Both the position numbers and the translations under genes were made by a program. Source: Escherichia coli (GTDB lineage Bacteria > Pseudomonadota > Gammaproteobacteria > Enterobacterales > Enterobacteriaceae). From it: a DNA stretch of 64,000 nucleotides. The first letter of the stretch is position 1. Each line of letters opens with the position of its first letter. The stretch is taken from NCBI RefSeq assembly GCF_048403405.1, contig NZ_CP183129.1. One strand, given 5' to 3'. This document shows positions 34,110 through 52,385 of this stretch, one piece after another. The notes beneath the pieces are model-generated. The model made no database searches and was not told the origin of the DNA. It saw nothing but the letters and a program-made list of their open reading frames with translations.

Positions 34110-34404
34110 GCTATATTAAAGCTTTAACTTCAAGCCCCATCGAATCAAACATGGAGAGTTTTCATGAATAAACCCGTCTGTCTTGATGACTGGTTGATTG
34201 GCTTTAAAAGCTTATGCTGTACTTTGACCTTAATAGCTCTGCTAATAATGTAATAAGCAAACTCATTGTATCTATGGACATTGTACTGGAAGAAAACATT
34301 TTAAACATCAGGCAAAAAACAAAGTCACCCGATAAATAATAAGTAAACTAACATGAATCCCGTAATGAGATTCAACATCTCTATTACCCTATTTAAAGCA
34401 CAAA

Positions 34405-34471: not shown

Positions 34472-34500
34472 ATTTTATCCATATTTTTTGAAAAATGCAA
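34472..34500 (-). promoter_or_regulatory. late promoter PR'-like (-35 TTGCAT, 17-nt spacer, -10 TAAAAT) with presumed qut region
   Basis: Read on the minus strand immediately downstream of the Q stop. Confidence 0.5.
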
Positions 34501-34531
34501 GCATCACGTCGCCATCTTCGGCGAAAATCAC

Positions 34532-35284
34532 TTATCTCGTCACCTTTCTCAATTGTGCTTCAGCGTAAGATTCCTCCTGCCAGCACTTTGTAACCAGTTT
34601 ATCAATGACATTTGCATATCCTTTATACCACTGATAATCACTCAGGTCCGGTACCAGCTTCTGGACATGATACCGCGCCAGTGTGGTTGGTAAACGACTA
34701 AACCGTTTTCCATTGCAACGCCCACAAATCTTATAAACAGGTGTGCCATGAAGCCGGGTCCTTTTTTCATCCAGGACAATACCTTTACCCTTACACCCTC
34801 TGCACGCTGTGCTGACTTCTCCCTTACCATGGCAATGCTGACATAGTTCCTTCACCCACTCTTCTTTGATAACAGATTCCCCGCTTCTGGAGTGTTTCAC
34901 CACTTCGCGCAATACATTATGAAATCCAGTACCAGCACAATGCTCACAACGAGCCTTACTTGCCGCAGACCTGGAATAATCAGCAAAGGCAAAATTCACA
35001 AGGTAAGGAATAATCTGTAGCCGGGTTTCTTCACTCAATTTATTCAATGTCGGGTTATCCAGTGCCATCGCGTAATTGAGCAGACCTTCAATCGCAAACT
35101 GAGGATCCTGAACACCAACTTTTGCCAGGAATAAGGCAAACCCAAGCGGTGCTTTCGATTGCACCATCCCCTGCGCAGCCATCACATCCGTAATCGTTAA
35201 ACCACCAGAGCCTGTCGCCGGTGCGTCATCACTCAATTTTGGAGATTTTGGGGAGTAATATTTTGGTAAGGCTTCAAGGTTCAT
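34532..35284 (-). CDS. Q: late antiterminator Q (phage 82/Qin QuuQ-like)
   Basis: 250 aa with multiple CxxC zinc-binding motifs, upstream of the late promoter. Confidence 0.8.
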   Translation of the reverse strand: MNLEALPKYYSPKSPKLSDDAPATGSGGLTITDVMAAQGMVQSKAPLGFALFLAKVGVQDPQFAIEGLLNYAMALDNPTLNKLSEETRLQIIPYLVNFAFADYSRSAASKARCEHCAGTGFHNVLREVVKHSRSGESVIKEEWVKELCQHCHGKGEVSTACRGCKGKGIVLDEKRTRLHGTPVYKICGRCNGKRFSRLPTTLARYHVQKLVPDLSDYQWYKGYANVIDKLVTKCWQEESYAEAQLRKVTR

Positions 35285-35297
35285 GCTCGTTCTCCAC

Positions 35298-36293
35298 TTA
35301 CGCCAGTACGCCTATTGCCAGCGCACGATCGATAAAACGAAATATCAGCTCCAGCTGGGAGCCATACTTCTCTTCAAATGCCACGGTATCCGCATGCAGC
35401 TCGTCGTGATGCTTTCTGCACAAAGGCAACACAAAAAGGTCATGCGCTTTTGTACCCATTCCCCCCTGACCGTGGCCTATCAGGTGGTGGGGATCATCAG
35501 CAGGTTTTCCACAACATGCGCACGGCTGCGTCTTAACCCAGCGCGTGTACTTTTCATTAACCCAGCGGTGACGTTTTGGGCGTAACATAAAAGACTCCGG
35601 CGACTCCGGATCCACTTTCAGCGCCAGCACCTTTTTCGCCTTATCCTGGATGATGCTGGTGGCAGGAACCGAAGGCACAAGGTCACTTTCCCGGGTAACA
35701 GACGGCACAACAGGCTTCGGTAATCTCAGTGCCTTACGGGCTGCACTTTCCGGTAAGGCATCCGCCAGATCATTACGAATCAGCCACCAGCACAGTTCCG
35801 GCATTGTCACAACATGACTGTCATCAAAACCGAGATCCCGACGCACAACAGACAACACCCAGCGGGCACAGTTATCCGTTGCCATTGATTCCAGCCGTTC
35901 CGTGAACTGATCGCGCAGCTGGTTATCGCAGTGCCAGCACAGACGGATTGCGCCCGGAGCGTGTCGCATTGTTGTCATATTCTCGCTGTGCCAGTCGGAA
36001 TGAGGCCACTGGCAGCCTTTTTCACGAAGTAACCAGCTTTCAAGACATTCCACGCCACCAGCACGACGGATCACTGCCTCATTGCGGAACACGGCCCGAA
36101 CGGCAGGATCATCCGCCAGCGGTTGTGATGCCGCCGGAACGGCACCACTGGCGAAAGATGAATAACGTTCCGGCTCAGGCTCCAGCAGGACACGCCCCTG
36201 CATAAACAAGGGCATCAGCTCTGAACCTGGTCTGAACAATACGATCCCCATACGCGGGGCAATTTCAGGGGTCAGTAGTGCTCTCACGGTCAC
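35298..36293 (-). CDS. DUF968-family protein (YdfU-like) with HNH-like Cys/His cluster
   Basis: 331 aa; C-terminal CACCGKPADDPHHLIGHG...CRKHHDELH. Confidence 0.65.
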   Translation of the reverse strand: MTVRALLTPEIAPRMGIVLFRPGSELMPLFMQGRVLLEPEPERYSSFASGAVPAASQPLADDPAVRAVFRNEAVIRRAGGVECLESWLLREKGCQWPHSDWHSENMTTMRHAPGAIRLCWHCDNQLRDQFTERLESMATDNCARWVLSVVRRDLGFDDSHVVTMPELCWWLIRNDLADALPESAARKALRLPKPVVPSVTRESDLVPSVPATSIIQDKAKKVLALKVDPESPESFMLRPKRHRWVNEKYTRWVKTQPCACCGKPADDPHHLIGHGQGGMGTKAHDLFVLPLCRKHHDELHADTVAFEEKYGSQLELIFRFIDRALAIGVLA

Positions 36294-36294
36294 C

Positions 36295-37122
36295 TCAATG
36301 AACGGTATCGAGCAGCTTTAACAGCTCAGGGAATCGGGATTCGAAGAAATGCGGCTGCGTCTCGCGCGGATTTGCAGGACTGGTGATGTTCTTGCCGAAC
36401 ATGCAGCCTTTCGCGGTCAGCGACCAGAATTTTTTGATGTTGTTAATCGCGGTACGACTGTATCGTTCGCGTTGTTCAACGATCCCCAGCTTCGCCATCT
36501 GGTGATATGCCTGATTAGCCGTCAGGCGGATACCATACTGCTTCAGCAGTGCACTCAGCGACAGCGTAGGGCGGCTTGAACCATCTGGCGCATCAGCAGG
36601 TGCATCAATGGCATAGATCGGCATAAGTTCAGGAAGACCAGCTACCTTTGATAATTTCTGGTATGCACCAAGTTTCGAGGAGTTTGACAGATTTAGAGTC
36701 TTTGCTGCTGATTCAAGCAGAATGACCCCGGATTTAATTTTGTCGGATGTGGTTTCTTCTGGTGATGAATTATGAAGCGCATCAAAAGTACGTATCACTT
36801 TTAAGCTGAATGCCGGGCTGATCCACATTGCATATGCATAGACCAGCTCTTTACAGACATACGTCCCACCATTGCGCCCCTGAATGGTGATGACAGGAAT
36901 ACTACGGGAATCTCCCGTAGTTTCTTCTTCCAATAATTCCACAAGAGCCTTCGTTTCAGGACGACGCATAAACTCGTGAACTTCCAGCGAACGGGAGGAG
37001 CGATTCTCACCAGCGGCAAGAAGAGCAGCTTTCTGAAGGTCGTTAAGACAGTAGTTAGATTCGAAGTACTGGCGCACAGAAACGCCATCAATTACAAGCA
37101 ACTGATTCATTGGTTTCTCCAC
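36295..37122 (-). CDS. KilA-N domain protein (antirepressor-like)
   Basis: 275 aa; N-terminal KilA-N-like region. Confidence 0.6.
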   Translation of the reverse strand: MEKPMNQLLVIDGVSVRQYFESNYCLNDLQKAALLAAGENRSSRSLEVHEFMRRPETKALVELLEEETTGDSRSIPVITIQGRNGGTYVCKELVYAYAMWISPAFSLKVIRTFDALHNSSPEETTSDKIKSGVILLESAAKTLNLSNSSKLGAYQKLSKVAGLPELMPIYAIDAPADAPDGSSRPTLSLSALLKQYGIRLTANQAYHQMAKLGIVEQRERYSRTAINNIKKFWSLTAKGCMFGKNITSPANPRETQPHFFESRFPELLKLLDTVH

Positions 37123-37272
37123 AAATTTTTATCCACGAGCGGGACTGCACTCCCTTTTCGTTGATGCAGGATGAACTTACTGCGATTTTTAATAGTTATC
37201 AAGGATACACTGTTCATAAATACAGTATCTTTAACGAGGTAATACCCAAATTTAGGGTGTTGCTCAATTCCG

Positions 37273-37668
37273 TTACCGAGTTGCTAATTTGCAACTCGCT
37301 TTTTCGTACTTACTGATAGTGATCTCGACCTTCCCCTCCGGGATAACCGGTCCCCACTCCACCAGCATTCTTTTCACCTGACTGTCGTCTTCCCACACAC
37401 CCGCGTGGGTCAGGGCGTCAAACAGCGCCTTGTTATAGTTGTCCAGATCGCGGATCCGGTTATCCGGAGGAAACAACACGATCTCCACTGAAGCAGGTGC
37501 CGACGTTGGTTTTGGCAGACGACGTAACTGCTCAACTATTGCTGCACACGCCGCGCTCTGGAATTTTCGCCCCGCCGCGCTTATCAGGCTCTTACCAGCA
37601 AACGCCCCTTTGTTGGGGTGTCGCCAGTACGTGTTCACGCTGGTCGGAAAAGGCAGGATCAGCTTCAT
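37273..37668 (-). CDS. rusA: Holliday junction resolvase RusA
   Basis: 131 aa; RDLDNYNKALFDALTHAGVWEDDSQV motif. Confidence 0.85.
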   Translation of the reverse strand: MKLILPFPTSVNTYWRHPNKGAFAGKSLISAAGRKFQSAACAAIVEQLRRLPKPTSAPASVEIVLFPPDNRIRDLDNYNKALFDALTHAGVWEDDSQVKRMLVEWGPVIPEGKVEITISKYEKASCKLATR

Positions 37669-37991
37669 ACTTTCAGGCCCCTCTCATGTAACCAGTGGGC
37701 TGCACGCAGCCTGGCGTTTTCCTCACCGGCAAGCAGTGAGCGGATAATCCCGACCGCCTCGCTGTCGTCGTCCTTCACCACGGTATGAAGCGTGATCCCC
37801 CGGGCCACACCACGCTTTATCGTGATGACGCCTTTTTTCTCCAGTGCGCGAAGATGCTCCACCGCTGCATTCACTGAACGGTATCCCAGCATGGTTGCCA
37901 CCTCCTGATTGGTTGGCGGGAAGCCACGTTCTTTCTGATAAGAAATCAGCATATCCAGCACCTGCTGCTGGCATTGAGTTAAAGTCGTCAT
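37665..37991 (-). CDS. LexA-type winged-helix DNA-binding protein (no peptidase domain)
   Basis: 108 aa; LTQCQQQVLDMLISYQKERGFPPTNQEVATMLGYRSVNAAVEHLRALEKKGVI. Confidence 0.6.
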   Translation of the reverse strand: MTTLTQCQQQVLDMLISYQKERGFPPTNQEVATMLGYRSVNAAVEHLRALEKKGVITIKRGVARGITLHTVVKDDDSEAVGIIRSLLAGEENARLRAAHWLHERGLKV

Positions 37992-38641
37992 GCCGCCATC
38001 TCCCTGACCAGTTTTTCCGCCTGCTGGCGAACCTGCGCCAGAAACGCCTCACCACATGCCTCAAGTTCATCGCGCCCGATGTAGCTGATTGCCGGTCCCT
38101 TCCAGGTCTTGTCGAAAACAGCAATAGCACCAGCGAAGAAAGCGCCTGTCGGCACCTGCTTCTCATCTTTCGGGATAAACCAGGCAGGCAGTTCAAAACC
38201 AATACGCCCGCGAATAAAAGCAATATGATCTGCATCTTCCGGCCACCACACTTCGCTGGTGGCAGCTTTGATCAGGAAAACATAGCGCCCGCCTTTATCA
38301 CGCATGGCACTGGCATGTTTCATGATGTAACGCATGCCGGTGATGTATTGCCCCTCATGCTGACTGGCGCGGCTGTATGGGGGATTACCAAAGGCAGCAC
38401 CTTTAAGCTCCGCAAGACGTTCTGACCAGTCATGCGCCAGCGCGTTGTCTTCCGCCGTGTAATACGCGGTACATTTGGCGTTATCACCGTCAGTAAACAG
38501 ATCCAGGACAAACGGGCCAAACAGGGTGTTAATTCCCCAGAAAATGTTATCCGGCGTGCGCCACTGATCGCCCACTTCCTTCAGTTCATGGGCTGGTTTG
38601 TTCCGCAGCTCCACCAGCTCCTGGCAATATTTATTACTCAT
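37988..38641 (-). CDS. phage DNA N6-adenine methyltransferase (Dam family)
   Basis: NPPY motif (GNPPYSR); start set at MSNKYCQ. Confidence 0.8.
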   Translation of the reverse strand: MSNKYCQELVELRNKPAHELKEVGDQWRTPDNIFWGINTLFGPFVLDLFTDGDNAKCTAYYTAEDNALAHDWSERLAELKGAAFGNPPYSRASQHEGQYITGMRYIMKHASAMRDKGGRYVFLIKAATSEVWWPEDADHIAFIRGRIGFELPAWFIPKDEKQVPTGAFFAGAIAVFDKTWKGPAISYIGRDELEACGEAFLAQVRQQAEKLVREMAA

Positions 38642-39129
38642 TAAGCCCCCACGTAATTCCCTGACAGATACCACTCATCACCCGATACAGCGCGCTTGCT
38701 GCTTTTCCGTAAGCACCGCTCACGACGTGCCAGAAAATTGTTTCGTTCTGGCTGGGAGTGGCTTTCACGGAATGCCGCCATCCACACGGTTGCAGCACGA
38801 CGGTATAAGCCCCTGGACTCCAGTTCTTCAGCCTGGCGGGTCAGGCACAAAATCACCCGGGGATCGTTAGTGCCGACATAGAAATTGCGCACAGGTCTGG
38901 TTTCACGAACTGGTTGTGGTTCCGGCTCCTGCGCTCTCTCAGTCAGGCGCGGGAAATGTCTGCGTGTATATCCTTCACAACGGTGAGCCACACGCCCACT
39001 CTGACGTAACTTGCTTGCAGACTGCAGAACGCGCTGCCGTGAGTAACCTGCAAAAGCATCCGCAATGTCTCCGGAAGTACACCCCGGATGGGCTTCAATG
39101 AATTTCTGAACTTCATTCAAAAGACTCAT
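38641..39129 (-). CDS. PerC-family-like transcriptional regulator
   Basis: C-terminal LESRGLYRRAATVWMAAF...RRERCLR resembles the PerC/Pch signature. Confidence 0.5.
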   Translation of the reverse strand: MSLLNEVQKFIEAHPGCTSGDIADAFAGYSRQRVLQSASKLRQSGRVAHRCEGYTRRHFPRLTERAQEPEPQPVRETRPVRNFYVGTNDPRVILCLTRQAEELESRGLYRRAATVWMAAFRESHSQPERNNFLARRERCLRKSSKRAVSGDEWYLSGNYVGA

Positions 39130-39131
39130 GA

Positions 39132-39950
39132 TTATCCCCTGAATCCTGCCGGGATCTGGCTGTAGTCCACGTTGTCGTAACTGGCTTTGAAGTACGGGTC
39201 CTCGCGTCTGGCTGCAGATACCGCAGGAACTTCCCAGGATTCTTCGAAATGACGATCCGGACCAAAGAACGTGACAGCCTGTTTCACAAATTGTGTGCCG
39301 CTGTTACCCATCGCAGATACCCAGCCCGCGTAGCGTTTCACACCTTCCAGCATGGTTTCGGGTTTTACCCCCTCATTCAAACGGGCTTTCCAGGCTTTGA
39401 AGGCTGCAGATTTTGAATTGCCACCAGCACGTTTGGGGTATGCCAGCCATGCCTGCTCAAACTCCGGAGAGTATTCCGGTCGGTTTGAACGAACTCGCAC
39501 AGACTCATCAGCAGATGCACCAACAGCTATTGGTTCATTGACTGGTTCTTTGACTGGTTCAAAAGAGTGACTGGTTCTGGGTGAATCTCCTGCACCACCC
39601 CCTGGTGCAACTCCTGCACTACCTGGTGAATTTGCTGCACCAGATAGTGAATTATTTGCACTACCCCCTAGTGAATCTCCTGCACCATCAAGATGAAGGA
39701 GATAGATATTACTTGAGTTACCTTTTTCACCTTTCCGGGTGACTTTTTTTACCAGCCCGGAATCACAAAGGGCCGCAATATGATTCATCACAGAACGTTT
39801 GCTAATCTCGCACTGGTCAGCAATATGCTGGTAGCTGGGCCAGCACTCACCCTGATCGCTGGCATTATCAGCCAGCTTGATCAGAACCAGTTTTCGCAAT
39901 GGATTACCCACTCGAATTTTCATCGCTTTAACCATCAGCTCCATACTCAT
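39132..39950 (-). CDS. replication initiation protein (O-like N-terminal wHTH; DnaT-like C-terminus)
   Basis: C-terminus ...YSQIPAGFRG parallels host DnaT ...[10 protein letters not shown] encoded at 56947..57486; start uncertain. Confidence 0.7.
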   Translation of the reverse strand: MSMELMVKAMKIRVGNPLRKLVLIKLADNASDQGECWPSYQHIADQCEISKRSVMNHIAALCDSGLVKKVTRKGEKGNSSNIYLLHLDGAGDSLGGSANNSLSGAANSPGSAGVAPGGGAGDSPRTSHSFEPVKEPVNEPIAVGASADESVRVRSNRPEYSPEFEQAWLAYPKRAGGNSKSAAFKAWKARLNEGVKPETMLEGVKRYAGWVSAMGNSGTQFVKQAVTFFGPDRHFEESWEVPAVSAARREDPYFKASYDNVDYSQIPAGFRG

Positions 39951-40183
39951 GCTGCACCTCCGAGATGCTTCATGTTTTTTCCGGAGCAAAAGGCTATAAG
40001 CGGCATACTGATGCGGTAATTACGGCCCAGCGGTTCACAAATCACCTTCTGACATTCACGGTCAACCAGGCTAACACGTAGAACATGCCCTGCAGGCGTG
40101 GTGTACCACTGCCCAACTGTAGGAATTGATGTTTTTTTACGCTGAAGCAAACGGCAAATATTGAGGATCAACGGATTAAGCAT
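39947..40183 (-). CDS. hypothetical protein (78 aa), translationally coupled in the replication operon
   Basis: Overlaps neighbouring ORFs at both ends. Confidence 0.45.
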   Translation of the reverse strand: MLNPLILNICRLLQRKKTSIPTVGQWYTTPAGHVLRVSLVDRECQKVICEPLGRNYRISMPLIAFCSGKNMKHLGGAA

Positions 40184-41012
40184 GACGATGCCCTCCGCTG
40201 ATATTCAGGAGACGGTGAATATGAAAATTAGCCTTATCCGCCAGACGAATACGTTCAGCCTGCAAGTTAAGAAGGGTTTCTACCAAAACCTGATGCGCCT
40301 GCGGATCCGAAAGAGTTACCTTGCGCAGAGCACGTAGTGCAGTTGTTACATAACTGAGTTTATGTAAGTCTTCATCATTCAGACGAGTGAGGGCTGGGAC
40401 AGTAGCCATGATGGCAGCCTCCGATAACAGTGAATTACCTTCACCACCGGAAACGCCAATTTCGCTGGTGGTGAACTGAACGGGGTTGGCGTAACCGGCG
40501 TTATCGGAAACCGGCGCACCTTTCGGTGCCCCCGTCCAGCCCACCATAATTTGGGTGTGCACAGACGCAGACGATAAAAAAGACGCTGGCGCGTCATATA
40601 TCGCCGATAACATTTCCAGGACGCCAATCCCGTCACCCGCTTTATAAGGTGCCTGAACAGTGTAACGTCCCGGAATGGCAGAATCAATGTGCTGGTGGTC
40701 CTTCACACTCAACAAAATCACGCCTGAATTTCCACAAAGGACTAAAGCACTCATGCGGGTAGTCTTTGCGAAGATAGATAACGCGCTGTGTTTCTGGTTC
40801 CCAACGAATAACATGGACATAAAGCCCTCTTCCGTCACGAAACCAGCGGTTAAGTTCCCGCACAACTCGCCCCCCACAGTCAGGTAAAGTTCTCTGTGGT
40901 TACTTACAGCCAGGTAATTTGGTAATCTGCATTCATGCCGTAACAACAGGTGTTCAGCGACACTGACCACCAGCTGTTGCGACAAACGGTTATTTGCCGT
41001 TAAACTGTTCAT
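40176..41012 (-). CDS. hypothetical protein (278 aa), translationally coupled between the CII-like and O-like genes
   Basis: ATGA overlap with the upstream gene; no recognisable motif. Confidence 0.5.
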   Translation of the reverse strand: MNSLTANNRLSQQLVVSVAEHLLLRHECRLPNYLAVSNHRELYLTVGGELCGNLTAGFVTEEGFMSMLFVGNQKHSALSIFAKTTRMSALVLCGNSGVILLSVKDHQHIDSAIPGRYTVQAPYKAGDGIGVLEMLSAIYDAPASFLSSASVHTQIMVGWTGAPKGAPVSDNAGYANPVQFTTSEIGVSGGEGNSLLSEAAIMATVPALTRLNDEDLHKLSYVTTALRALRKVTLSDPQAHQVLVETLLNLQAERIRLADKANFHIHRLLNISGGHRHA

Positions 41013-41572
41013 GCGTTAGTTTCTCCACAGACACAAAACGCCACGACGCCCGGAGCTGCACACTCGCGGGCGTCACTCTTTTCTGGAGCGCAAAAGATTT
41101 TGTAGACCAGTGCTGCATGCTCTTGGAGCTTCGAAATTGACAGATACAACTCATCATTAATTGCTGTCTGCTCGTGTGGCTCCACGACCCCATCTTCGAT
41201 TGCCGAACGAATCTGCTTTGAGTAATTCCCGATCTGTTCGATGACTTCCAGCAGGCGCTGGTTTATATCGGCGTTCTCTACTTCCTCAATTTCAGGAAGC
41301 GATACGAACACCCCACCAGCAGACTGTGCGACAGCATCCGCAATGTAGTGAGTGCCAGCCGCGCGCTGTAAAACCATTGCCCATCCCAGCGGGAAAATCT
41401 GATCGCCATCGGCACGAAGGCGGTTAAATAATGCGTTCTCTGTTACATCCAGCCAGTCAGCTGCTTCAGCGTAACCACCCGGCAACGCTGCGATAGTTTT
41501 TCTGACAGCTTTCACGTACCACTCAGGCTGTTTTTCTACTTTCCAGTGATACTTACCCACGGTTAGCCTCAT
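41009..41572 (-). CDS. CII-like regulator (YdaT-family-like)
   Basis: 187 aa, immediately downstream of the cro-like gene. Confidence 0.5.
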   Translation of the reverse strand: MRLTVGKYHWKVEKQPEWYVKAVRKTIAALPGGYAEAADWLDVTENALFNRLRADGDQIFPLGWAMVLQRAAGTHYIADAVAQSAGGVFVSLPEIEEVENADINQRLLEVIEQIGNYSKQIRSAIEDGVVEPHEQTAINDELYLSISKLQEHAALVYKIFCAPEKSDARECAAPGVVAFCVCGETNA

Positions 41573-41603
41573 CGTTCTGTGGTTAAAAATTGAAGGTGTT
41601 CTG

Positions 41604-47602: not shown

Positions 47603-48826
47603 TCAGTTTGAATCAGAGATAGTACAATTAACAATCGATTCAACCCTCTTCCACCATGCCAGGTAAGCTTTACGCTGTTCTTCTAGATAATCGCTCTTAT
47701 CATAAACTTGCCATACCCCTGGCAGCTTATGACCAAGCATAATTTCTGCGATATGAGGCGCAGTAAGATCAGAAAAATTTGTTCGTGCTGTCCGTCTCAA
47801 GTCATGAAGAGACCAATGAGGGAATTGATATCCTAAACGCCGCCACGCGTACTGCATTAAATTGTAAGGCAGCGACTGTAATGATGTCCTACCGACTGGC
47901 TCCCTGCTTCCTTCCTTAGTAAAAAGCATATCGGAACCGTTGTTCATAGAGATAACGTATTTTATAAGCTCTTCAACCGGTTCAATAATGGGCCGCTTTA
48001 GCGGTTCGCCTGTTATGTCCCCTGTCTTATGTCGTTCAGGTGGTACAGTCCATACCTTATTTATGAAATCAAAATCACCCACCCTAGCAGTAATTAGCTC
48101 CGAACTACGGCAACCAAAATGCAGTAATAGTTTAATGAAGGCCCTGTATTTGGGAACCATTCTAGAGCCATCGATCGCAGCATAAAGAATTTTAATTTCA
48201 TCGTGTGTCAGAAACCGTTTCTTCTGACCTTTACGGATATCCATATCTTTACCCGTGATATCCGACAGCGGGCGAGTTTCAATAAGCTTTCTCTTATACG
48301 CCCAGACATGGGCCTGCTTTGCGTTAATTAGCAATCGGTCTGCTATTGCTGGAGTCTTAGTGCTAAGAGGCTCCAGGACTTCTAACCAATCATGCAATGT
48401 AGCTGCATCGTGAGGGATATTCCCGATTTTAGAGAACAGGTGCAGCTCAAACGAGCGGAGTATCTGTTCAGAACTCTTTTTATTTTTTACACAATATGCT
48501 TCATACCAGGCACGGATCACAGACTCTACCGTCATGGCTTCAGTAGCTTTTCGTTTTTCAGCCTGCTTGACCAATCGTGGATTACGGTTTGACTCGAGTT
48601 CACCACGGAGACGGATAACTTCTTCTCTGGCCTCTTTTAATCCAGTTGCCGGGTAAGTTCCGATATCAAGACGCTCACCTTTCCCTGCCCATTGATAACG
48701 ATATTGGAACACTACGCGACCTTTCGGTGATACTCTGACAGACAGACCATCACGATCGGATTTAACCAAAACCTTATCACGTTCCTTTCCAACGACTGAA
48801 CGCAACCACGCATCAGACAGCGCCAT
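47603..48826 (-). CDS. int: tyrosine integrase (P4-type)
   Basis: 407 aa; catalytic R (GCRSSEL), H-x-x-R (HDLRRT) and C-terminal Y. Confidence 0.95.
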   Translation of the reverse strand: MALSDAWLRSVVGKERDKVLVKSDRDGLSVRVSPKGRVVFQYRYQWAGKGERLDIGTYPATGLKEAREEVIRLRGELESNRNPRLVKQAEKRKATEAMTVESVIRAWYEAYCVKNKKSSEQILRSFELHLFSKIGNIPHDAATLHDWLEVLEPLSTKTPAIADRLLINAKQAHVWAYKRKLIETRPLSDITGKDMDIRKGQKKRFLTHDEIKILYAAIDGSRMVPKYRAFIKLLLHFGCRSSELITARVGDFDFINKVWTVPPERHKTGDITGEPLKRPIIEPVEELIKYVISMNNGSDMLFTKEGSREPVGRTSLQSLPYNLMQYAWRRLGYQFPHWSLHDLRRTARTNFSDLTAPHIAEIMLGHKLPGVWQVYDKSDYLEEQRKAYLAWWKRVESIVNCTISDSN

Positions 48827-51865: not shown

Positions 51866-52064
51866 GTATCTGATATCTGTCGCCGCATACCGTGTCGGAT
51901 GCGGCGTACACGCCTTCTCTGACCGACAAACGAATTATCCACAATCCGCTGATGGACATTTTTCCAGCAATTACACCTCCGGCGATAATTAACTATTGAC
52001 GAAAAGCTGAAAACCACTAGAATGCGCCTCCGTGGTAGCAATTCTTTTTAAGAATTGATGGTAT

Positions 52065-52150
52065 GCGAAGGTGGCGGAATTGGTAGACGCGCTAGCTTCA
52101 GGTGTTAGTGTCCTTACGGACGTGGGGGTTCAAGTCCCCCCCTCGCACCA
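52065..52150 (+). tRNA. leuV: tRNA-Leu (anticodon CAG)
   Basis: gcgaaggtggcggaattggtagacgcg...ttcaagtcc...cgcacca; long variable arm; CUUCAGG anticodon loop. Confidence 0.9.
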
Positions 52151-52178
52151 AAAACCACGTTGATATTGCTCGCACTGG

Positions 52179-52264
52179 GCGAAGGTGGCGGAATTGGTAG
52201 ACGCGCTAGCTTCAGGTGTTAGTGTTCTTACGGACGTGGGGGTTCAAGTCCCCCCCTCGCACCA
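52179..52264 (+). tRNA. leuP: tRNA-Leu (anticodon CAG)
   Basis: Near-identical tandem copy. Confidence 0.9.
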
Positions 52265-52298
52265 AACGAGGCGATATCAAAAAAAGTAAGATGACTGT

Positions 52299-52385
52299 GC
52301 GAAGGTGGCGGAATTGGTAGACGCGCTAGCTTCAGGTGTTAGTGTCCTTACGGACGTGGGGGTTCAAGTCCCCCCCCTCGCACCA
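52299..52385 (+). tRNA. leuQ: tRNA-Leu (anticodon CAG)
   Basis: Near-identical tandem copy. Confidence 0.9.

Follow-up and report, generated by a model that had tools for sequence, protein, structure and literature searches.

What do the small genes packed between the replication gene and the resolvase gene of a lambdoid prophage do, when their family labels speak of virulence regulation, DNA methylation and the SOS response? The question is raised by a prophage in a 64,000-nucleotide stretch of Escherichia coli DNA (contig NZ_CP183129.1, RefSeq assembly GCF_048403405.1; hereafter the window), in which three open reading frames (ORFs) occupy positions 37665-39129, all on the minus strand. An earlier note on this stretch had assigned the three to a PerC-like regulator, an orphan Dam-type methyltransferase and a LexA-type DNA-binding protein, and profile searches bore out all three families. 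In order of transcription they are a yfdN-type gene encoding 162 amino acids (aa) (38641..39129; PF06069, PerC), a phage N6-adenine DNA methyltransferase gene, here called dam, encoding 217 aa from its ATG (37988..38641; PF05869 and TIGR01712), and a gene for a 108-aa protein that corresponds to the LexA DNA-binding domain (37665..37991; PF01726). The PHROGs and NCBIfam assignments agreed with the Pfam calls for all three genes. We favor, at a probability of roughly 0.55, an explanation in which they make up an accessory ('nin-like') part of the early-right operon in a lambdoid prophage of SfV/mEp460 type that has an e14-like immunity region, this part supplying an orphan Dam-family enzyme that would act on phage DNA, the regulator YfdN, and a LexA-domain protein predicted to be uncleavable.

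The arrangement of the genes carries much of this explanation. The upstream gene encodes a replication-initiation (O/DnaD-like) protein (39132..39950, minus strand; HTH_36 and DnaD_N Pfam domains, phrog_270, and RefSeq annotation), and its stop codon lies 2 nt ahead of the yfdN ATG (TAA-tc-ATG). The yfdN stop codon and the dam start codon have one base in common (TAATG), and the lexA-like gene overlaps its neighbors by ATGA at both ends, with dam on the upstream side and, on the downstream side, rusA, which encodes a Holliday-junction resolvase and is the last gene of the coupled run (37273..37668, minus strand; PF05866 RusA, phrog_34). Between 36900 and 39400, a simple scan identified no terminator-like site on the minus strand and a promoter scan identified no sigma-70 consensus promoter. 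The three genes are predicted from these junctions to be translationally coupled, and the operon with early-right genes that the earlier note had proposed holds up on the shared strand, the coupled junctions and the lack of a minus-strand terminator-like site in that interval. The ratio of nonsynonymous to synonymous substitution rates (dN/dS), calculated pairwise from the copies in the window, SfV and K-12 together with two diverged ones from E. coli, ranged from 0.04 to 0.42 across all three genes, with small substitution counts. The three ORFs are real genes under selection, far beyond chance. The surrounding prophage contains an e14-type immunity region (homologues of ymfK, ymfT and ymfL), a single O/DnaD-like replication gene, Q, lysis genes and lambda-like structural genes.

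Because the three genes lie on one strand behind the replication gene, with overlapping or nearly abutting stops and starts, they are most likely made together, and only after inactivation of the prophage repressor, a timing suggested by their position. The 217-aa enzyme, an orphan that would use S-adenosylmethionine, most likely methylates the replicating phage DNA, so that progeny would be fully modified. Its family membership is firm; methylation is probably at GATC by analogy with the family, and the proposed role is drawn in the same way. By analogy with Pch proteins and the AraC negative regulators (ANR), YfdN may use its winged helix for DNA targeting and its PerC module for protein-protein or nucleoid contacts, and might have its targets among promoters of the phage or the host and not in LEE, the locus of enterocyte effacement; both suggestions about YfdN are weak. 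The LexA-like protein may occupy CTGT-N8-ACAG operators while host LexA is being destroyed, as its contact residues and the nearby boxes suggest. Its candidate targets are a box 440 bp downstream at a kilA-N gene and two boxes at a dinI-like gene, and its binding would re-set SOS-controlled promoters during lytic growth.

A common block of E. coli and Shigella prophages

Over 2.7 kb, from rusA to the replication gene, the block matched the E. coli YDC107 chromosome with 100% identity, and RefSeq names the corresponding products there 'PerC family transcriptional regulator (yfdN)', 'phage N-6-adenine-methyltransferase', 'LexA family transcriptional regulator' and 'RusA'. The block was 97-99% identical in phages PhiR63_1, 1720a-02, mEp460, phiSTEC1575-Stx2k and Stx2a_WGPS2 and in fifteen Stx2c phages, and 98% identical in O104:H4 strains, where it is present in a prophage. 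Of 5426 complete E. coli genomes, 2741 carried the block in part or in full, 735 of them to an extent of at least 80%.

Genes and gene order were as in the window in Shigella phage SfV, mEp460, SfII, SfIV, the cdtI phage, 1720a-02 and the Stx2c/Stx2a phages, at 96-100% protein and approximately 98% DNA identity; the LexA-like protein was 96-100% identical in SfV (orf42), SfII, SfIV and the cdtI phage. The order in SfV is orf39 (replication)-orf40-dam-orf42-orf43 (rusA)-orf44 (KilA-N)-orf45 (DUF968/HNH)-Q, and in both the SfV-type copies and the window the block is placed between the replication gene and rusA/kilA-N/DUF968/Q. The window differs from SfV in having a 150-nt spacer between rusA and kilA-N that contains an SOS box, and in a diverged N-terminus of the KilA-N protein, which is 66% identical to SfV orf44; SfV has neither feature. 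The window-type spacer and diverged N-terminus are common to SfIV, PhiR49_1 and 185 of the 5426 E. coli genomes. A remnant of the block is kept in the K-12 prophage CPS-53 (KpLE1) as yfdO-yfdN-yfdM. K-12 YfdN is 95% identical to the window protein over 164 aa and has the same flanking genes (an O-like gene and dam). YfdM corresponds to the first 89 aa of the window methyltransferase at 98% identity and breaks off immediately behind NPPY. The replication gene is present in truncated form as yfdO, and the remnant has neither the LexA-like gene nor rusA.

By these matches, the block is a common and already known accessory segment of E. coli/Shigella lambdoid prophages; it has been present in sequenced phages since SfV, and every gene is already named in RefSeq. 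As an interpretation of a prophage block that is very common and already annotated, the finding is correct, but as it stands it matters little. It does carry a caution, namely that a 'PerC family' label in a prophage is not equivalent to virulence activation, and that 'LexA family' does not here denote an SOS-cleavable repressor. The remaining interest lies in the very widespread protease-less LexA paralogue, which SfV, SfII, SfIV, mEp460, the cdtI phage and many Stx2 phages carry, as does a large fraction of E. coli genomes.

Families and architecture of the three proteins

The methyltransferase matched PF05869 (Dam) at E=1.4e-45 and 155.4 bits (cutoff 28.1) over profile positions 3-167 of 169, and matched the TIGR01712 equivalog 'phage N-6-adenine-methyltransferase' at 253.9 bits (cutoff 97) over positions 1-165 of 165. 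Its catalytic motif is intact, with GNPPYS at aa 85-90 and NPPY at aa 86-89 (nt 38386-38375). An ORF extended to a GTG at 38674 would overlap yfdN; the start annotated in RefSeq is the ATG that gives 217 aa. Its neighbors are YfdN, the LexA-like protein, RusA and the replication protein, with no adjacent endonuclease, and PADLOC identified no partner nuclease or defense system, matching only its MTase_II/oMTase models. The DUF968/HNH gene two genes downstream is also found in mEp390, there without dam. The orphan enzyme with an NPPY motif described in the earlier note can accordingly be recognized in the sense that no endonuclease gene adjoins it; the suggestion that it alters host methylation is speculation. 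A sequence search returned no solved structure for the methyltransferase, and homologues were found in 586 phage records from many hosts.

One of these relatives bears on the target site. ECs_1196 of Sakai prophage Sp5 (175 aa), the nin-region 'DNA methylase' of Sp5/VT2-Sa, scored 218 bits against PF05869. M.EcoVT2Dam appears in a published list as an orphan enzyme with GATC specificity, with reference to Radlinska and Bujnicki 2001 (PMC6602927), and from its Pfam score and location ECs_1196 is most likely M.EcoVT2Dam, the E. coli prototype of PF05869. The window enzyme shares its Pfam family, NPPY motif, nin-region location and orphan status, but is 42 aa longer and only 30% identical over 144 aa, so a GATC target remains a family-level guess. 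The tetranucleotide GATC was under-represented in the late/structural region (window 3700-34500; observed/expected 0.54). It was not under-represented in the early-right region, where the gene for the Dam-family enzyme lies (34500-41600; observed/expected 0.90), and this second value is uninformative on the target.

Other identities for the enzyme were ruled out. M.EcoGII, raised by the 98% match of the block in O104:H4 strains, belongs to another family: M.EcoGII and M.EcoGI are 349-aa beta-class enzymes with DPPY and FxGxG motifs, and M.EcoGII is non-specific (PMC5778455). The MT-A70 rRNA methyltransferase of Stx phages is likewise from another family, with a DPPW motif (PMC10810198). SfV orf48, annotated as a 350-aa methyltransferase gene after Q, is probably the M.EcoGII counterpart, as judged only from its size and position.

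For the PerC-like protein, the earlier note had named a profile search as the test on which the similarity could fail. The search was positive: PF06069 matched at E=1.9e-9 and 38.1 bits (cutoff 22.6), over aa 98-151 only and profile positions 5-58 of 90. The C-terminal PerC/Pch-like signature thus stands as a domain call, and the virulence-activator role attached to it is not supported, in view of the identity with YfdN and the PchD, PchE and phage-inducible chromosomal island (PICI) data considered below. An exhaustive HMMER search identified full-length two-domain homologues of approximately 140-165 aa, down to approximately 24-25% identity, and an AlphaFold2 model built on the homologue alignment had a mean predicted local distance difference test score (pLDDT) of 78.8. 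The model predicts an N-terminal winged helix of three helices and a beta-hairpin (aa 1-60, nt 39129-38950; pLDDT 82-89), a disordered linker (aa 61-89) and a three-helix PerC domain (aa 90-144, nt 38862-38698; pLDDT 91-95). Foldseek matched the N-terminal domain to ArsR/SmtB, BlaI/MecI and MarR winged helices at approximately 2 A root-mean-square deviation over approximately 60 aa, with weak E-values of 0.03-0.1, and returned no specific match in the Protein Data Bank (PDB) for the fold of the PerC domain; a sequence search found no solved structure for YfdN. The start of the gene varies between copies: the RefSeq copy in YDC107 is 164 aa long and would begin in the window at an ATA (39135), the first ATG in the window is at 39129 and gives 162 aa, and K-12 has an ATG at the longer position.

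These features identify the protein, at the level of sequence, as an orthologue of YfdN and not as a Pch group-1 activator. Like PerC and Pch of enteropathogenic and enterohemorrhagic E. coli, YfdN has the PerC helical domain, and its core 'LE..GLYRRAA..W' aligns to PchE. PerC and PchA-E are small single-domain proteins of about 90-105 aa; the 162-aa YfdN differs in its extra N-terminal winged helix and linker, and matches part of the PerC profile only. PchE itself was ruled out as an identity, as Sakai PchE is 40% identical to YfdN over 52 aa only, is a single domain of 90 aa, and matched the PerC profile end to end at 152.8 bits. The pchE gene (locus L003, 41772-42044) lies in Sakai Sp7, which, over the part seen, has integrase, primase and capsid/terminase genes but lacks genes for tail and lysis, and which looks like a satellite or PICI-like element; its location agrees with the report that PerC-like genes are common in PICIs (PMC11773190). 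The YfdN PerC domain (window 38698-38862) also resembled the ANR (Aar-type) model NF033650 at E=3.6e-5 and 23.5 bits, below its cutoff of 32, and a resemblance between PerC and ANR proteins was remarked upon by the authors who described the PICI PerC-like proteins (PMC11773190).

The LexA-like protein matched PF01726 (LexA_DNA_bind) over the whole 65-residue profile (positions 1-65) at E=2.9e-19, and its best PDB matches were the E. coli LexA structures 1lea, 1jhh and 3jso (E~1e-15). It was 43% identical to E. coli LexA over approximately 90 aa (LexA residues 1-86); the PDB match is independent of the LexA sequence used in the family and tail alignments. The full-length LexA model TIGR00498 matched at 71 bits, under its cutoff of 111, and over model positions 1-91 of 203. 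No Pfam match to Peptidase_S24 was found in the protein, which ends at aa 108. In domain content it is therefore the DNA-binding domain only, and it is not an SOS-cleavable repressor of the LexA type; of the earlier note's 'LexA-type DNA-binding protein', the DNA-binding domain was confirmed and the implied cleavable repressor, with its S24 peptidase, was not. Since the protein has no S24 protease, RecA* would be unable to inactivate it by autocleavage, and the LexA-type dimer interface is missing along with the S24 peptidase/dimerization domain. It is unrelated to the CI-like repressor of the prophage itself.

The protein comprises a winged helix-turn-helix (aa 1-69), a flexible linker and a two-helix tail (aa 78-103), the tail helices being placed at 78-87 and 93-103 by AlphaFold2. 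After a short acidic linker, the tail follows the consensus ..IIRALLAGEENARLRA.HWLHERG.KV, and it is kept in the homologues from mEp390 and a Klebsiella phage (45% and 38% identity to the window protein, respectively), in both of which the lexA-like gene occurs without dam. The stretch LLAGEE aligns to VAAGEP of LexA, which contains the Ala-Gly cleavage site, and is helical in the AlphaFold2 model; some homologues have AN or VG in place of AG. The LexA residues S39, N41, A42, E45 and R64, which contact DNA in the LexA-DNA structure 3JSO, are all kept in the phage protein, and the recognition-helix residues of LexA are retained; across the family, S39 and R64 do not vary and N41 hardly does.

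The closest characterized analogue found is gp6 of Bacillus phage GIL01, a truncated LexA homologue that is mainly a DNA-binding domain and that activates the late promoter P3, which is repressed by LexA-gp7 via LexA boxes (PMC6182141). Both proteins are essentially LexA DNA-binding domains without a protease domain, encoded among the early genes of an SOS-inducible temperate phage (PMC6182141). GIL01 is a Gram-positive tectivirus and gp6 a demonstrated late-promoter activator; the E. coli protein differs in its conserved two-helix tail, and the likeness noted is one of architecture. The Klebsiella phage ST846-OXA48phi9.1 (locus L006, 1-969 and 3994-4013) carries its distant LexA-like homologue (38%) two genes after a dinI gene.

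Alternative roles

Several points weigh against parts of the explanation favored here. The H-NS- or ANR-type mechanism proposed for YfdN draws on the sub-threshold 23.5-bit match and on analogy, and 30% identity over 144 aa to M.EcoVT2Dam, the only family member with a cited specificity, is too low for specificity to be transferred. In the LexA-like protein, LexA E44 is replaced by Val and R28 by Asn, so its specificity may differ. An isolated LexA N-terminal domain binds operators poorly without dimerization, and an AlphaFold2 model of the LexA-like protein as a linker-fused dimer had a predicted template modeling score of 0.38, by which a dimer is neither supported nor excluded. SfV and mEp390 both have the LexA-like gene and no SOS box in the nin region, and SOS boxes at dinI-type morons are common in temperate phages generally (PMC7556043). 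A bolder version of the LexA-like protein's role is held only tentatively and is, on balance, doubtful: the protein of 108 aa would serve as a RecA*-proof mimic of LexA, re-occupying SOS operators after induction, as host LexA undergoes cleavage, and uncoupling the host SOS regulon from DNA damage. Its targets would include kilA-N, dinI-like genes, the M.EcoGII-like methyltransferase gene of related phages, host SOS genes and the LexA-controlled antirepressors of rival prophages. Such a mimic, if real, would be a Gram-negative counterpart of GIL01 gp6 with the opposite sign. Should the protein bind SOS boxes, induction of the phage would act back on the SOS regulon, with possible consequences for further mobile elements under SOS control (Stx phages, colicins and antirepressors, for example).

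A role like that of gp6 itself, as an activator of a later phage promoter, is unlikely for the LexA-like protein. The domain composition shared with an activator of P3 (PMC6182141) and the position of the lexA-like gene upstream of Q and late functions in all contexts seen would suit such a role; these phages, however, have the Q antiterminator for late control, the Q-proximal and intergenic regions examined contained no conserved palindrome other than SOS boxes, and the relation to gp6 seen here is the shared LexA domain. For YfdN, the corresponding proposal is that it regulates virulence by turning on LEE/ler or other host pathogenicity loci in the manner of PerC or PchABC, which we consider improbable even though the PerC-domain match is genuine and above the Pfam cutoff and the block is also carried by Stx2a and Stx2c phages and an O104:H4 prophage. 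Because yfdN is present in K-12 and the block in about half of E. coli genomes, a virulence-activating (LEE) role is not supported; K-12 has no LEE, and that the gene is found throughout commensal and K-12 backgrounds speaks for a function centered on the phage. Only 54 of 90 PerC profile positions are matched. LEE1 is activated by PerC and PchABC (PMC5931665, PMC4764244), and Pch acts by relief of H-NS silencing (PMC4764244). Homologues outside group 1, which include the nearest relatives tested (PchD, PchE and the PICI proteins), behave otherwise: whereas ler was activated at least 4-fold by group-1 PchA/B/C, it was activated less than 2-fold by PchE and not at all by PchD (PMC5931665), PchE represses csgD, curli and flagella (PMC6265319, PMC7369912), and of the PICI PerC-like proteins assayed on LEE1, one represses and two have no effect (PMC11773190). 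In the ler-lacZ assays, yfdN was called 'the K12 unique PerC homologue' and was deleted as a precaution (PMC5931665).

The methyltransferase might also depend on a flanking winged-helix protein, either YfdN or the LexA-like protein, as a targeting subunit instead of acting alone on DNA. The Stx-phage MT-A70 enzyme requires the winged helix-turn-helix partner PNB-2 and then prefers 16S rRNA (PMC10810198), dam has on either side a winged-helix gene to which it is predicted to be translationally coupled, and enzymes of the dam family are small (175 aa in Sp5, 217 aa in the window). The window enzyme belongs to PF05869 and not to MT-A70, and Dam homologues occur without either neighbor: Sp5 ECs_1196 lies between ninB and an antirepressor gene, and E2863 lacks yfdN. 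Conversely, mEp390 and the Klebsiella phage have the lexA-like gene and no dam, and the family includes M.EcoVT2Dam, a listed GATC enzyme (PMC6602927). A dependence of this kind is very improbable. Finally, one or more of the genes could be decaying remnants, for example a truncated LexA- or CI-type repressor that is now functionless. The truncated K-12 copies yfdM and yfdO, the many frameshifted or fused variants in the protein database and the retention of the LexA Ala-Gly region as 'LLAGEE' would fit decay, but the length of the LexA-like protein is constant at 104-108 aa in thousands of sequences, its C-terminal tail is conserved to 38-45% identity, and dN/dS is 0.04-0.42 with start/stop coupling intact. 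The replacement of AG by AN or VG in some homologues suggests that the tail is conserved as a helix and not as a cleavage site. Decay is largely refuted by these observations and has the slimmest chance of the readings considered.

SOS boxes, KilA-N and other features

SOS boxes were scored with a rough position weight matrix (PWM) built from 27 E. coli SOS boxes. Three sites in the 64 kb scored above 12, and all front SOS-type prophage genes. In 30 mononucleotide shuffles of the sequence, the mean maximum score was 13.4, and one shuffle reached 21.8. A strong box, TACTGTATTTATGAACAGTG, at 37208..37227 is an exact CTGT-N8-ACAG with a score of 21.8 and lies in the gap between rusA and the kilA-N gene, which is directly downstream (36295..37110, minus strand; PF04383 KilA-N, RefSeq start 37110). 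The box was intact in two diverged copies with changed flanks. This suggests that the KilA-N gene is LexA/SOS-controlled and possibly encodes an antirepressor; the KilA-N protein showed no similarity to the Sp5 'antirepressor' ECs_1199, and nothing was found in the literature on this module or on a LexA-controlled KilA-N antirepressor. The box is a candidate operator for host LexA and, by extension only, for the phage LexA-like protein. The other two sites are tandem boxes at 1042-1061 (22.4) and 1070-1089 (19.3), directly upstream of a plus-strand gene for a DinI-like protein of 82 aa (1103-1351; PF06183) at the far end of the prophage. These boxes and the DinI-like gene have the layout of a classic LexA-regulated moron.

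The kilA-N box was rejected as a conserved partner of the LexA-like gene, as SfV and mEp390 lack a nin box and only 15 of 80 IMG/VR loci carry the kilA-N one. It is not an obligate partner of the gene. Boxes were present elsewhere in the relatives: SfV has a single box over the first codons of orf48, mEp390 a single box upstream of dinI, and the Klebsiella phage ST846-OXA48phi9.1 a strong box (22.2) ahead of a two-gene operon that is divergent and follows closely on Q. Of the 80 IMG/VR loci with the LexA-like gene, 51 contained one or more of four recurrent box sequences; these 80 loci are all at least 97% identical and hence not independent, and the association between SOS boxes and the LexA-like gene is a lead, not a result. 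An inverted-repeat search for other operators in the Q/PR' region, the kilA-N spacer and the immunity region returned only a terminator and the immunity operators.

Further palindromes of SOS-box grade were observed within coding sequence. The palindrome TACTGTAAAAATAAACAGTG lies over codons 4-10 of the approximately 350-aa methyltransferase gene downstream of Q, in SfV (locus L011) at 34170-34189 and in approximately 27 of the 80 IMG/VR loci (for example L023:15134). This post-Q methyltransferase is taken as M.EcoGII-like from its size and position only, and M.EcoGII has been reported to be silent in lysogens (PMC5778455). In 25 of the 80 loci (for example L013:4676, L015:5073 and L034:798), the palindrome TACTGTTTTTA[C/T]ATACAGTA lies inside the CI-like S24 repressor gene, 21 nt ahead of an internal Met with which the peptidase domain begins. 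This may be coincidental, or the palindrome could provide an internal LexA-controlled start for a product consisting of the C-terminal domain only. On the host side of the window, three tandem tRNA-Leu(CAG) genes (52064-52385) lie approximately 3 kb past the prophage integrase gene (47603-48826).

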